Position numbers and translations under genes: made by a program. DNA of 63,675 bases, counting the filler, from Reclinomonas americana ATCC 50394 (lineage: Eukaryota): assembly GCA_048213135.1 (NCBI GenBank). It is 9 parts of 9 records of this genome, joined end to end, with 100 filler letters (N's around TTAATTAATTAA, not from the genome) between each part and the next. Parts side by side here need not be neighbours in the genome. Positions count along the whole stretch, not along the records: positions 20,002 to 35,238 come from AFZH01017395.1; 8 more parts are not named here. The stretch is one strand, 5' to 3'. The notes beneath the pieces were generated by a model that saw only the letters and a program-made list of their open reading frames with translations, was not told the origin of the DNA and searched no databases. The stretch's first letter is position 1. Each line of letters starts with the position of its first letter. Shown piece by piece: positions 25,023 to 30,019 of the stretch.

Positions 25023-28000
25023 CTATGGTCGTCGAGAGGAAGCCTTACTGCTCTTGCTTCCGTTTTGGCCAGCATTGCCGTGGCCAAGTCCTCGTGGCCC
25101 GTGTGAAGCACCGTCGCGGACAGAAGCGCTCCGACGGGAGGTGTGATGAGTTACAAAGCCGTCATCATCAGCGACTTCACGAGCCGAAATCGGGAGTGTC
25201 GCACTGGCCGAAACGACGGTAGGAGATGCTGTGCCAAGTTCGGTGGGCTGCGAGGCTGCTGTTCCGCTACCACGTCCTGCGCCCCAGTCACCACGGTCAC
25301 CCAATGGGCCTACACTACCGCGATCGCGTCCAGCGGCGCGCGGCGCAAATGCAGGGTCCTGACCGCGCCCGAGACCAAGAGGGCCAATGCCATGGTTGAT
25401 ACTCGCGGGAGGCAGAGCCGCCGACGCGAGCTGCAGCTGAGAACTGGCCCCGACAGGGCGTCCGCTGGCACCCTGTCCACCGGCTGATGGTCCAGCATCC
25501 ACATAATGACCGCCGTACGAGCTGCCGGCAGAGCCACGAGTCGTGCGCCCATCTTTCGCGCGATGCCGATCACTTGCGCCCGCGGCGCCGCTTGAGCTTC
25601 GGACCACTTCCACATTGACAGGGCGACGGATGCCCTCGACAACTTCATAGAGGATTTCTTGCATCGACGATATTCGGACGGCGTCACGGAGCCGATCACT
25701 GAGGGTCACAATCGCCGGCGGGCTGGACTGATAGACAATGCGATGGCCACCACTGTCGAGATCCAGCTCCGGCACCTGAACACGATCACTGCCCAGATCT
25801 CTCTCTGGCATCTGAACGACAAGACGTGAGTGACTGTGGACGAAGTCCAATCGCACGCACAGTCGGCTGGCAACACACACACACCTCCGCTTCGTGTCTG
25901 GCTGTGGCCTCAAGAACGTCCTTCACGAGGACATGCACCAAGCGATCGATCTCAGGCCGACGACGTGATTCGCTGCTTCAGAGATTGTATTGCAATTGAG
26001 TTGATACCGTGTCTCAGGACACTGCAGAAGGCTAACAAAGACTCACCCGGTGAGCCTTCGCTGCAACGCGGTAAACTGCTGACTGGACAGATGCTTGTCG
26101 GTGACCAACACGAACATGTCGTAGCGCTTGTCGCCGCGGTATGGGACGTGCACGTACGGCAGTGTCTCATGCACAAACTTTTCGCTGAAGGGAGCCAGCG
26201 TCAATACGACGACAGGTCATGCAGGAGAAAGTTGGAATACTCACTCAGGCGCCAACAGGCCCATCGTCTCTTCGGCGCATTCACGGGCAGCAGTAGCGGC
26301 AGAGCTGAAGGATTAACATTAGAGAGTGAAATAGCTTGACAAGTCACGAAGTACACGCACCTACTCATTTCCGAGAAGTCTCGCTGGCCACGCTGTCCGT
26401 CGACCACAGCCTGCAGAAGCTTCCCACCAAAGTCGCTGGCCTTTCCACGCTGGACCTCGCCCGCTTCGACCCCCAGTGTCAGCACTGCGTGCTGTCCGCT
26501 ACGGCCGGGTGGCACATAAACAACCAGTATCCCAGCGCCAGAAGGACAGCTGCGCCGTCGCGATGCACCGAGTTCGCGACTGCGCAAATTCCAAGCAGAG
26601 GTAAGCAATAGTGAGAAAGAGTGCAGCTGGTTAGAGCACACAGACCGATTCGGGAAAAACACCACGGCGCGAAGGCCTGCGCGGACGAATTGATCTGCGT
26701 AGCTGACAAACAGTCCGCTGTCCTCATCGTCCTTTCCGTGAGACTCCACGTCGATAAACGCCAACTGACCGATCGGTGGCACTTGACGGCCACGGTCGAC
26801 ATAATATGGCACTTTCTCCAATTGCTTAGCCCACGTCTCCTCAAATGGCAAGTCCAGTGCCAACTTGCGAACATCGTCAAAGCCCGCGTCAGTAAAACGC
26901 AAGCGCCTTCTGACAAAGAATTCCATCGCATCGTGCAGTTTGTATGCGCTTGCCATGGGCCCAAAAACCCACCAGGCTAATTGCGCTTGCTTCGTCTGCA
27001 GACGTTGAAGCTGGTTGGAGAGCCACTTGTCAACCGAAACCTGGCTCGTTTCACGGTAGCCGAGACGCACAGCAAGATCACGAAGTCGTGAATCCTCCTG
27101 CTTCGTGTACTCCTCCGGCAACAGGGGTGTGTAGCGCGACAGCCAAATAAACATCTCCGCATCTCGGCTGGTCCCTAACACCAAGCCCCTGCAGTTACCG
27201 TTTGACGACACCTCGTTCCTCATCTTATGCTCTGGGAGGTCTACAATCAAAACCACCGGCGAATGTGCCTCCGCAATCGTGCCGTGCACCTCGTCGCTGA
27301 ACCAGCGACGCTGTGCGTGCCAGGCCGCGTCAGCAAACGACTCGAAAAAGTAGAACGACGGAGTACGGCTGAAGTCGCTGAAATCGTTCATGAGTACTGT
27401 CTGCTGGGCATGCCCCAGAAGCGTGCCACTCACGAGAATACGTGCCGCCTTGTCAGCTGAACACCCGTGGAACCACCGTTTAAATCCTGCTTGTGGTGGC
27501 GCCAGATTGTCCTTGAGCAGAGTAGCTGCGCGAACAACAACGTCGGCTAAATCATCCCCGTCGGGAACATTCAGCGCGCCCAACACCACCGAACGCTCAG
27601 GTGCGGCTTCAACAGGTAACTCTGAACCGATTCCGCGCAAGGGACAGAACGGGAAACTAATTAGCTCACTGCCGTCCTCCGAAGCACGCAGCCGACGGAC
27701 GAGTATTGACAGTCGCGCGAGACCCTGCGCACTCGAGTCACGAGCGCCGCCAACAATCGCCAGATACTCTGCAAACCAGTTACGAATGGCCTGTTCGTCA
27801 ACAGGCTCCTTGTGATCGCGCAGATCAGTGACCCAGTGGAAGAATGCGTGTCGAAAGCAGTACTCCAGATTGTCGCAAGACAGCACGCGGAGATTCGGTT
27901 CCAACAACGGCAGCAACACACGCGTGACGTAACGAGCTATGCCTTCAGCCACAATTGCCTCGCGTTCACTGGGATCGTTCACGATCCGCATGGCCAGACG

Positions 28001-30019
28001 CTGGTGGATACCAGCGCGACACAGCTGGTCAATCAGACGACTGTCATCGGCACCGCATTCCTCAGCGTCACCCAGCCAGTACATCTTGACCCAGAAATCG
28101 TAACTCTCAGGATCTCGGGAGGTATACAAAAATGTCTTGGCTGCTGCAGAGTGTGCGTTGGCTGACGCAAATGTCATTGGCCAACATGCGTTACTGGAAC
28201 CACTGCTGCCGATCCGACGAGCGCCAACATCGGCCAACGGCCTGTAGCACTCGGACACGACAAACTTGATCAGCGTGCGACCGTCGTCGACTCCCATGGA
28301 GACAAACAGACCAGCGGCAATGGCGGCCAAGCTGGACTTGGAATACACGCTGTTGCAGAGTCCACCGACAGCACGAATCATGTGAATCACGTCATCCAAC
28401 ACCAAGGTATTGTAGCGGCGCCGACTGTAGTTGATGTTCTGAAAGGCCACCAGCAGAGTCAAGGCAGTGTCTCTCTCAGAGTCATCGACCTTGGAATCGG
28501 GGTGCCTGCGAGTGTCACGCAGTCCTGCGACTCGGAGCACCTGACAGGCGATGTCTTCAGAGGCGTTGACAAACTGCCGGCGCCATCTAAAAGAGCGGTG
28601 GGACACATTGGCGGCAAACGATGCAGCGTTCTCCAGTTCACGAGTCTGCGCGTTGAGATCAGCAATGAGGCTGATGGCCTTCTCAACAACCACCATCAGA
28701 TGATCCGCACAAGCACACAGTGCCTCGGTCGAGCGGTTGTAACAGTAAACGCCGAAAAAGTTGTAGATACGCCCCCGTCGAGCACTGTTGGTGCAAGTTG
28801 AGAGCACGTCAACCAGAAGCTTCAGACACTCTTGTGATTGGTCCACAATGTCGAGAACGGCATCGTCGCCAACCACATCGGTATCGGCCTTCCCCTTAGT
28901 GTGCTTGCGATGCGACGATGATGCAGACGCGGACTCGCCAACCTCAGACTCATCCTCCAAGGACGCGAGAAGTGACTCCACTGTCGACTCGCCTGACGCA
29001 CGGTAGCACACACCTTGGAGAAGCTCAACAAAGGCAGTAAAGTGGAATACAACAGCACCGACACAGATCACAGTTGAACTGGCATCTCGTGTCAACACGC
29101 CAACAGGAGTATCCAGATCGCCGTCCCCTGGTCGGCGAACCGTAAGACCGAGACGATCCACCACTGCACGTGTGACACGCGTCCGCAAGACGGTGTCTTG
29201 AAGAACGCTATGCATACTGAGGAATGGTTGGCGAAGCAACATCGCCAGATACCCAGCCACGGCCAGGTCTTGCTCGTCACTGGGGTCAATGGCGATGCTA
29301 TTCAGAATCGACAGAGCCTCCTCGCATGCGCTCATCACGCAGTCACGAGCATCGTTACGCATTCGGCACAGACGATTCACGATAAGCGCGGCTGCGTGGG
29401 CAACCAGGCATCGCTGTTCGGGCGTATTCTCGATGTAGTCCGCAGTGCGACGAAGAGCTGCGGAAAGTCGCTGCCGGAGCACGGGAAACGCCAACTGCTG
29501 TTGTGACCGCTGCTCCTTCTGCCAGGATGAGACAAGTGCACCCAGTTCAGCAGTCGAGCCACCCTCCAGAATCAACAGTGCTTCGTCGGCAGTCTGTTCA
29601 TGAGGAAGTTCACCAGGAGTGCCTGCAAGCGGCAGAGAGTCATTGTGAGCATGTGAACCGAGAAAGGAATAATCGATCAGAGAACACAACAGTGCCAAAG
29701 CAGTCCCGCTGCGTAAGACTAGCAGAGGCTCGACGAAGTGCACGGAGGTGTGCACCATGCGCATGCGATCACGAAAGGCGCCACAAAAAGAACTCACACC
29801 GTGCACCCATTCACACGAGCGAAACACACTCAACACACAATACACGCACACGCACCCACACACACGCATACACACGCACACGCATATTCAGAGAGAGAGA
29901 GACAAGCAAACAAACGATCACACTTGCATGATTGATAGATGGACAGGACCAGCGTCGGCAGACAGTACATCCACCACACTGAGGTACGTACCATCGACCA
30001 CGTGTTCTGCGCTTGACAT
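25023..30019 (-). CDS. ~1430-aa protein: long helical N-terminus + DUF3990-like ADP-ribosyltransferase domain + Nudix hydrolase + disordered tail
   Basis: Proposed exons are 29992-30019, 26646-29622, 26361-26579, 26245-26304, 26047-26184, 25885-25972 and 25023-25811 (4299 nt, in frame, all GT-AG). ART motifs: WFHGCS, DFSRTPSFYFF, VVLIVDL, WVFGPMAS, QLAF. Nudix motifs: GAGILV..LGVE..SDFGGK..TAARECAEETMGLL. Confidence 0.75.

Follow-up and report, generated by a model that had tools for sequence, protein, structure and literature searches.

The gene described here lies on the minus strand of a stretch of DNA of 63,675 nucleotides (hereafter the window), which was joined from nine records of the genome of Reclinomonas americana ATCC 50394 (GCA_048213135.1). 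It is located at 25023..29764, in the part of the window that comes from AFZH01017395.1, and all coordinates below are window positions. The solid result of the analysis is a new eukaryotic protein family with an ADP-ribosyltransferase (ART) fold, which is invisible to Pfam, joined to armadillo repeats and equipped with a conserved His-Tyr-Gln set. The fuller explanation, for and against which we regard the case as evenly balanced, is that one eukaryotic gene encodes a protein of about 1,470 aa consisting of an armadillo solenoid, an ART-fold domain, a Nudix-like module and a low-complexity tail. In this explanation, the ART-fold domain would be one of a small family without annotation whose members are scattered among protists, a distant kin of bacterial DUF3990, and would retain His, Tyr and Gln (or Glu) at the three H-Y-[EDQ] positions. 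Splicing would put the Nudix-like module, seen in this genome only, right after the last ART strand. The architecture armadillo-ART-Nudix is possibly new. No description of such a protein was found in the literature searched, a search with supplements and subscription journals outside its coverage.

The ART-fold domain, distantly DUF3990-like, is encoded at 26648..27559 on the minus strand (residues ~736-1039). It comprises about 300 aa and carries a helical/acidic insertion of about 60-100 residues. A template-free AlphaFold2 model of this region, built with alignment A1, shows a beta-alpha pattern with strands at residues 26-34, 68-72, 101-109, 197-201, 264-269 and 296-301 (domain numbering). 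Its predicted local distance difference test value (pLDDT) is 73 and its predicted template modelling score (pTM) 0.77. The model was compared to 48,161 representative chains with VIA-align. The top match was ParT (Z 6.3, root-mean-square deviation 3.5, 142 residues aligned), followed by a PE-like toxin (Z 6.3), exotoxin A (Z 6.2) and cholix (Z 6.1). Diphtheria-toxin homologues, RES toxins, PARP1/2/3/4, tankyrases, PARP13 and KptA were found in lower rows, and further rows were occupied by plant RCD1/SRO1, pertussis-like toxins, the TASOR pseudo-PARP and DarT. At least 31 of the 50 listed rows belong to the ART superfamily by title. These ART rows have Z values of 4-6.3 with 100-159 residues aligned, and the alignments cover model residues 1-304. 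In seven rows of the list, short helices are matched to the insertion (residues 130-195). Foldseek against the PDB placed MbcT, ParT, NatT, PARP10/14/15, exotoxin A, RhsP2, PARP4 and KptA in the top ranks.

Three results weigh against this fold assignment. Foldseek with the domain model returned no PDB match at E ≤ 0.001 (best E 0.15). The VIA-align scores are modest, with 27 chains at Z ≥ 5 and none at Z ≥ 8, and values of Z < 8 can, according to a warning of the tool, mean a shared arrangement only. No ART-clan Pfam match was obtained for any of the 17 aligned members of the family (the window protein and 16 relatives) at E ≤ 10. The ART-fold call is based on the uniform match list and on the coverage of residues 1-304 rather than on any one score, and on this basis the modelled domain very probably has an ART fold. 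An earlier note on this DNA had proposed such a fold for 26650-27500; the template-free model and the fold searches, which return ART toxins, PARPs, RES, DarT and KptA, bear this proposal out.

A fold search of BFVD with the domain model (mdaba110a065b) also yielded no match at E ≤ 0.001. The closest row was the phage protein A0A0H3UZB3 (202 aa, E 4.9e-3, prob 0.99, target TM 0.56), followed by Gp251 of Bacillus phage G (177 aa, E 9.6e-3). Both may be DUF3990-like ART-fold proteins, judging from the model comparison. A few ART-PolyVal or rifampin-ART rows were also returned (E 0.07-0.95).

Relatives were collected with an exhaustive phmmer search of 1.84 billion representative proteins (E ≤ 0.001), for which the 1,175 aa encoded at 26363-29887 were used as query. 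The search yielded 17 relatives at E ≤ 0.001, of which eight reached E ≤ 1e-10 and none E ≤ 1e-30; the best E value was 2.8e-19, and the identities range from 24 to 40%. One of them comes from the choanoflagellate Salpingoeca rosetta (hypothetical protein PTSG_04911, a name not found in the main text of PMC4381721). The other nine relatives that were looked up originate from environmental contigs, most of them 3-5 kb long and the longest about 8 kb. Three near-duplicate pairs and four truncated sequences are among the 21 rows of alignment A2, and the 17 aligned members mentioned above were used for Pfam scans.

Two regions are conserved in the alignments A1 and A2. A middle helical block is characterised by LWPMS, YWLG and LDRLC.AG. 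The C-terminal domain features, in this order, KRW[FY]HGC, HD[LF]G...FY[LF].E....A..HA, P.V[LI]IF[DE], F.SRN, W.F..M, [IV]GQL and LRAV.F. The peptide motifs listed in the earlier note were all present and in the order given there. The last ART strand of the window protein coincides with the end of exon 1. Among the 13 relatives that reach this strand, most stop there or within ~60 residues, while relative P0003 has a longer Lys-rich tail beyond it.

At E ≤ 10, Pfam recognised no family in the open reading frame (ORF) or the exon pieces. The 17 relatives had none at E ≤ 0.01 except for one chance-level PriCT_1 row; the rows recorded for ORF, exon pieces and relatives (such as EIAV_Rev, ANK_LRRK2 and PriCT_1) were at chance level only. 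PADLOC and PHROGs scans of the 17 members returned nothing relevant. The family profile, searched against PDB sequences, returned weak rows only (coronavirus PLpro, E 0.019; APC armadillo, E 0.39), and a word-based homologue search with the ART region among candidates of 594-1,890 aa gave no match.

The H-Y-[EDQ] clade of ARTs is defined by a His in strand 1 (H-x-[ST]), a Tyr in strand 2 and a Glu, Asp or Gln at the front of strand 5 (PMC7955679). In the window protein, motif I is represented by His766 of WFHGC (27467..27469, minus strand, codon CAC), which lies in predicted strand 1 (26-34) and is aligned to the His of DUF3990 YHGS. This residue is His in 21/21 rows of A2. The third residue of the motif is Cys in 20/21 rows, compared to Ser or Thr in the clade definition. 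Motif II is represented by Tyr805 of FYFFE (27350..27352, minus strand) in predicted strand 2 (68-72), aligned to the GFY..QA..WA block of DUF3990. The position is occupied by Tyr in 16/19 rows, by Phe in two and by Asp in one. Glu808 is invariant (19/19 rows), and His816, 11 residues past Tyr805, is His in 16/18 rows with one Trp and one Gln; DUF3990 has Trp at the matching position. In diphtheria toxin and PARP1, 11 residues likewise separate the two tyrosines that stack on the nicotinamide.

The candidate for motif III is Gln1000 of IGQLAF (26765..26767, minus strand) at the start of the penultimate predicted strand (264-269). Gln is found in 14/17 rows of A2 and is replaced once each by Glu, Arg and Ser. 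The Ser row is relative P0012, which is apparently derailed at its C-terminus. The lone Glu, in relative P0009, is compatible with an [EDQ] alternation. Relative P0010 has Arg at this position and Asp in place of the motif II Tyr, and may be an inactive member.

We are hesitant about catalytic activity as an ART, which the conserved residues suggest as a possibility but no further than that. Counting against it, Gln1000 would be the catalytic position by motif order and predicted strands rather than by superposition. Somewhat less likely still is a role as a pseudoenzyme or ligand sensor, in which the domain would bind NAD+ or ADP-ribose but not transfer it and the protein would act through its armadillo part as a scaffold or signalling adaptor. 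This alternative would account for Gln instead of Glu as third motif residue in 14/17 rows and for HGC in place of the H-x-[ST] of the clade (PMC7955679). Eukaryotic ART-like pseudoenzymes flanked by repeats are known, namely LRRC9 and TASOR (PMC7955679), and the pseudo-PARP domains of TASOR, PARP13, RCD1 and SRO1 are among the structural matches obtained here. However, His is found in all 21 rows, and Tyr, Glu and Gln are strongly conserved although the relatives are 18-26% identical to the window protein. Conservation of this kind is met more typically in pockets that are active or bind a ligand than in decayed ones. In addition, the clade definition explicitly admits Gln (PMC7955679).

The earlier note had likened the domain to the DUF3990 type (PF13151). 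This family matched 16/401 sampled Bacillota genomes at E ≤ 0.001, and 12 intact Bacillota domains were used as profile for profile-profile comparison by local hhalign. The whole domain of the novel family matched DUF3990 with Prob 61.7, P 7.7e-5 and a score of 36.2 over 68 columns. The paired columns join HD.G..FY..E..A..HA with DFG.GFY.T..QA..WA, followed by the next strand and the SRN/..R.. motif; relaxed alignment additionally pairs WFHGC with YHGS of DUF3990. The N-terminal half alone gave Prob 72.6 and P 3.2e-5. As a control, 0/60 column-shuffled DUF3990 alignments reached 36.2 (max 19.5), and the reversed alignment scored 12.3. Of the three ART-clan families compared in this way, DUF3990 was the best. 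RES (five sequences) gave P 0.86 and KptA (five sequences) P 0.073, while DUF3990 reduced to five sequences gave P 0.0013-0.0051 in 4/4 draws. A Nudix profile, used as unrelated control against the ART-like family, gave P 0.74.

Two results limit this kinship. The C-terminal half alone failed against DUF3990 (P 0.17, out of register), and the Pfam DUF3990 model (cut-off 32.2 bits) matched 0/17 members at E ≤ 10. Because of the latter, the family should be regarded as a separate family of the ART superfamily, with DUF3990 as its closest relative known so far, and not as a member of DUF3990. Specific kinship with DUF3990 is nevertheless the view to which the profile comparison inclines us, with reservation. 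Of the earlier comparison, a distant profile kinship carried by the N-terminal half was retained, whereas membership by the Pfam model and a match of the C-terminal half were not obtained. DUF3990 is listed among the Pfam ART-clan families (PMC7955679), and the name also occurs in papers on type VI secretion; the one literature search made on that name brought up no study of its function.

Some observations were made on the bacterial side. Among 14 open frames beside Bacillota DUF3990 genes that were scanned (loci L097-L114), DUF3791 was recognised in two upstream frames and an Xre-type helix-turn-helix (HTH) at the end of two downstream ones (211 and 213 aa), and one neighbour is a YpsA SLOG-family protein. 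An unannotated frame of 76-87 aa is located directly downstream at five loci. Judged by gene content, the bacterial DUF3990 loci look like small toxin-antitoxin or conflict modules.

The gene model consists of six exons on the minus strand (25023..29764), from a putative start Met at 29764, with the frame kept and no internal stop over ~1,470 aa. Its basis is a stop-to-stop frame at 26201..29887, for which we counted 1,228 codons; the long ORF reported earlier is present, with a length that differs slightly from the 1,226 aa given for it. Exon 1 (26646-29764) is followed by exon 2 (26361-26579), exon 3 (26245-26304), exon 4 (26047-26184), exon 5 (25885-25972) and exon 6 (25023-25811), which ends with the stop codon at 25023-25025. 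Exon 3, with a length of 60 nt, contributes the AARECAEET.G helix, the core of the putative Nudix box, which is matched by local Nudix hidden Markov models (HMMs). The introns are short, all on the minus strand, and end in CAG: intron 1 (26580-26645, 66 nt, GTCTGT), which is in frame and free of stops, intron 2 (26305-26360, 56 nt, GTGCGT), intron 3 (26185-26244, 60 nt, GTGAGT), which holds an in-frame TGA, intron 4 (25973-26046, 74 nt, GTGAGT) and intron 5 (25812-25884, 73 nt, GTGTGT). When the six exons were joined by coordinate, the product was 4,536 nt from 29887 and 4,413 nt from Met 29764, with zero internal stops. The G + C content of the introns (41-56%) is lower than that of the exons (56-65%).

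These data agree with the earlier note in several respects: all five introns it had placed are of the GT..AG type and keep the frame up to the stop at 25023-25025, the long ORF is carried on by downstream exons, and the RE..EE motif is located in exon 3, in a frame that the long ORF does not read. As to the seven exons claimed there, six form one open frame, whereas the seventh is a candidate only. This candidate extra 5' exon (29992..30019, minus strand, ATG at 30019) would be joined via a putative GT..AG intron of 273 nt (29719-29991), which is ~4 times longer than the other five introns. The ATG at 30019 with an intron ending at 29719 was the sole frame-keeping acceptor found.

Whether the downstream exons belong to the same protein decides if an ART-Nudix protein exists at all. 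The 3' part of the model could be wrong, with the Nudix-like exons on another transcript or skipped, but we regard this as improbable. All relatives end at or soon after the last ART strand, as expected in that case, and exon 3 can be skipped in frame, being 60 nt long; skipping would take out only the RE..EE helix, which is a point against the model proposed here. On the other side, no in-frame stop occurs between the last ART strand and exon 2, regardless of whether intron 1 is kept or removed: intron 1 is a multiple of three without a stop, and exon 2 is hence in the frame of exon 1, spliced or not. Exon 2 lacks a Met ahead of its first Nudix-like strand, making a separate gene start at this exon unlikely. 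The GT..AG sites at each of the five junctions resemble the consensus, and after joining, no stop interrupts the frame for a further 1.3 kb past exon 1. Exon 2 and the exons beyond it are therefore, with good probability, part of the same polypeptide as the ART-like domain, as far as the reading frame tells.

Retention of intron 1 would add 22 residues between the ART-like and the Nudix-like part. Together with the skipping of exon 3, it could give rise to regulated isoforms. Two variations of the model were dropped. Other donor sites of intron 2, which might yield the canonical spacing of the Nudix box, were checked by eye and none was found to keep the frame. A single read-through frame of exon 3, intron 3 and exon 4 (X at the stop in intron 3) was discarded, since it would bring little gain and would say nothing on how the DNA is read in the organism.

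The Nudix-like module is encoded by exons 2-5 (25885..26579, minus strand) and was examined with local HMMs and hhalign. The spliced sequence features, in this order, a GAGILVVY strand, a second strand, FGGK, an Ala-rich RECAEE helix, a YDMFVLV strand and an E...L.HV element. Two local Nudix profiles were built, one from 14 E. coli K-12 domains and one from the same 14 and 30 Bacillota domains (44 in total). The best match of the 14-sequence HMM in the whole 1,470 aa is exactly on the box (2.5 bits, E 0.0089 for one target), and so is that of the 44-sequence HMM (E 0.01). In hhalign, the single spliced module gave P 0.059 against the 14-sequence alignment and P 0.0055 with a score of 20.9 against the 44-sequence alignment. 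With relaxed settings the alignment is colinear across 116-117 Nudix columns; with default settings it comprises 23 columns around the box. None of 150 shuffled queries reached 20.9 (max 17.9), and the reversed query scored 9.1.

A number of results speak against a Nudix domain. The textbook Nudix box reads G-x5-E-x7-R-E-U-x-E-E-x-G-U. The box found here is non-canonical, with the Gly one residue late (EETMG), the upstream Glu 10 residues before the Arg instead of 8, and GGK ~29 residues before RE instead of ~14, corresponding to an insertion of ~15 residues. The local Nudix HMM scores are low, at 2.0-2.5 bits. Pfam matched neither exon 2 alone nor exon 4 alone. With exon 2 as query, a PDB sequence search returned no Nudix protein and a single chance row (RNase H, E 0.93), an Atlas search no row above 0.88 and no Nudix protein, and a word-based search among longer proteins (E ≤ 10) no match. 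Finally, 0/17 of the relatives carry the module or anything resembling exons 2-6, which weighs against a conserved writer/eraser unit.

These findings would fit an alternative in which the armadillo and ART-like parts are real, while the C-terminal extension is lineage-specific and partly disordered and resembles a Nudix box by chance. We take this to be a serious but minority option: the low HMM scores, the 23 confidently aligned columns, the unsuccessful searches, the shifted Gly, the long insertion and the absence from the relatives all favour it. It has more difficulty with the position of the best HMM match on the box, with the expected order of strand, GG, RE..EE helix and later strands in the colinear alignment, and with the shuffled queries, none of which attained the observed score. 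A true but divergent Nudix fold is, from the profile comparisons, the explanation that we moderately favour for the C-terminal module. What the earlier note had reported as a Nudix box is hence retained in its RE..EE core, with profile support of E 0.01 and P 0.0055, and not in the canonical spacing. Exon 6 has no match to a Pfam family. Its 262 residues include 40 Gly, 36 Ser, 31 Ala and 27 Arg, and after a short ordered-looking start the exon probably encodes a disordered tail rich in these four amino acids.

The N-terminal region (27665..29497, minus strand; residues ~90-700) was modelled as an all-helical, armadillo-repeat-like solenoid, which includes the conserved LWPMS/YWLG/LDRLC.AG block. 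In the model of the whole exon-1 protein (1,039 aa; pLDDT 68.8, pTM 0.62), residues ~90-700 are all helices. Foldseek with this model yielded 42 PDB matches at E ≤ 0.001 (best 1.4e-4) with ~490-660 alignment columns, led by importin-alpha, designed armadillo (ARM) proteins, beta-catenin and ciliary central-apparatus ARM proteins. Neither an ARM nor a HEAT family of Pfam passed in the window protein or its relatives. Based on the all-helical model and the ARM matches, the N-terminus is predicted to be an armadillo-type solenoid. It agrees in form only with the helical scaffold or sensor suggested previously. Outside the ART-like domain, the best conserved stretch is the LWPMS/YWLG/LDRLC.AG block (~27960-28240, minus strand; residues ~510-600). 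Trp558, Trp563 and Gly585 are invariant across the 21 rows of A2, and no known family matched the block.

If all parts are as proposed, the armadillo solenoid might bind a partner or ligand, and the ART-like domain might bind NAD+ and then move ADP-ribose onto a target or free ADP-ribose. The Nudix-like module might in turn cut the pyrophosphate of the product, either clearing free ADP-ribose or trimming the adduct to phosphoribose. The most far-reaching version is a single-chain 'write and trim' enzyme, in which an armadillo sensor would govern a DUF3990-like H-Y-Q ART acting on protein or nucleic acid and the Nudix module would cut the pyrophosphate in cis. We consider this version a long shot. 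A writer/eraser or immunity function is inference only. If the 'write and trim' mode were true, it would leave a phosphoribosyl mark or destroy an ADP-ribose signal, and it would be the first functional handle on DUF3990, a family without known activity.

Enzymes of ADP-ribosylation play central parts in DNA repair, in immunity and in the conflict between host and pathogen, and new ART branches keep yielding new chemistry. Relatives of the ART-fold family occur in a choanoflagellate and among protist sequences from the environment. Should the Nudix-like module prove real and active, an ART and a pyrophosphatase would be fused in one chain. If it is not real, the finding shrinks to a new ART-like family, which is useful but less striking.

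The genomic surroundings of the gene were scanned for Pfam families. Upstream, the neighbouring gene on the minus strand ends at 30481 and has a last exon of cytidylyltransferase type (30484-30894, minus strand, CTP_transf_like, E 7.7e-7). Elsewhere in the window, a Myb DNA-binding domain (5751-6911, minus strand, E 1.2e-7) and a TMEM260-like protein O-mannosyltransferase (54466-55410, plus strand, E 9.3e-18) were found. The other 25 of the 28 long window frames scanned gave no Pfam family at E ≤ 0.001. By these annotations, the context is ordinary eukaryotic housekeeping, with nothing pointing to a conflict island. Runs of (CT)n, (CA)n and (GT)n abound in the intergenic regions at 30954-32427 (minus strand), ~29830-29930 and 24140-24200. 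In several frames, they give rise to long pseudo-ORFs that overlap one another and are Ser/Leu-rich or Cys/Val-rich; these are probably non-coding.

Compared to DUF3990, the novel family shares the order of [FY]HG[SC], D[FL]G..FY, A..[HW]A at 11 residues past the Tyr, a hydrophobic strand and a ..R.. motif. Gln is present in the last motif of both families, as read from the DUF3990 sequences themselves. The domain of DUF3990 has ~150 aa, whereas the domain described here has ~300 aa including an insertion. DUF3990 is mostly found in Bacillota and their phages, where the bacterial genes examined are small and lie beside DUF3791, HTH or SLOG genes; the novel family is eukaryotic and fused to ~700 aa of armadillo repeats. 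The H-Y-[EDQ] ARTs of solved structure (diphtheria toxin, exotoxin A, cholix, PARPs and ParT) resemble the novel domain in fold over 130-157 residues (Z 5-6.3), with His in strand 1, Tyr in strand 2, an aromatic residue or His 11 residues past the Tyr and, as a putative match, Gln or Glu opening the penultimate strand. They differ by the lack of detectable sequence similarity, by their flanking domains and by the third motif residue, which is Gln and not Glu in most members of the novel family.

LRRC9 has leucine-rich repeats on both sides of an ART-like domain in which most active-site residues are absent, and a role in innate defence has been proposed for its family (PMC7955679). It shares with the window protein the eukaryotic origin and the combination of a Pfam-undetected ART-like domain with a large repeat-type domain. 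In the window protein, however, the repeats are of the armadillo type and located on the N-terminal side only, and His, Tyr and Gln are kept. In bacteria, NUDIX genes are reported in 18% of the gene neighbourhoods of the DUF4291 ART-like family, and a NUDIX gene also in another bacterial ART-like operon (PMC12522546). There, NUDIX is a neighbouring gene, whereas here it would be fused into one eukaryotic chain. The Nudix fusions noted from PMC9503650 are with cREC, head proteins and NadM, with no ART-Nudix fusion among them. With Nudix hydrolases in general (PF00293), the module described here shares the RE..EE helix core after Ala-rich turns, GGK, the strand order and the rough spacing; it differs in the non-canonical box and in the strength of the match (E 0.01, P 0.0055).

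The SidE effectors of Legionella combine a mono-ART and a phosphodiesterase in one protein and leave phosphoribose on the target. They have no sequence or architectural relation to the window protein, and their second enzyme is a phosphodiesterase rather than a Nudix hydrolase. The likeness is a functional analogy only, in that an ART and an enzyme cleaving the ADP-ribose pyrophosphate would be present in one chain. If the proposed function is true, the SidE-like logic of ART plus phosphodiesterase would have been assembled from different parts and would be native to a protist.

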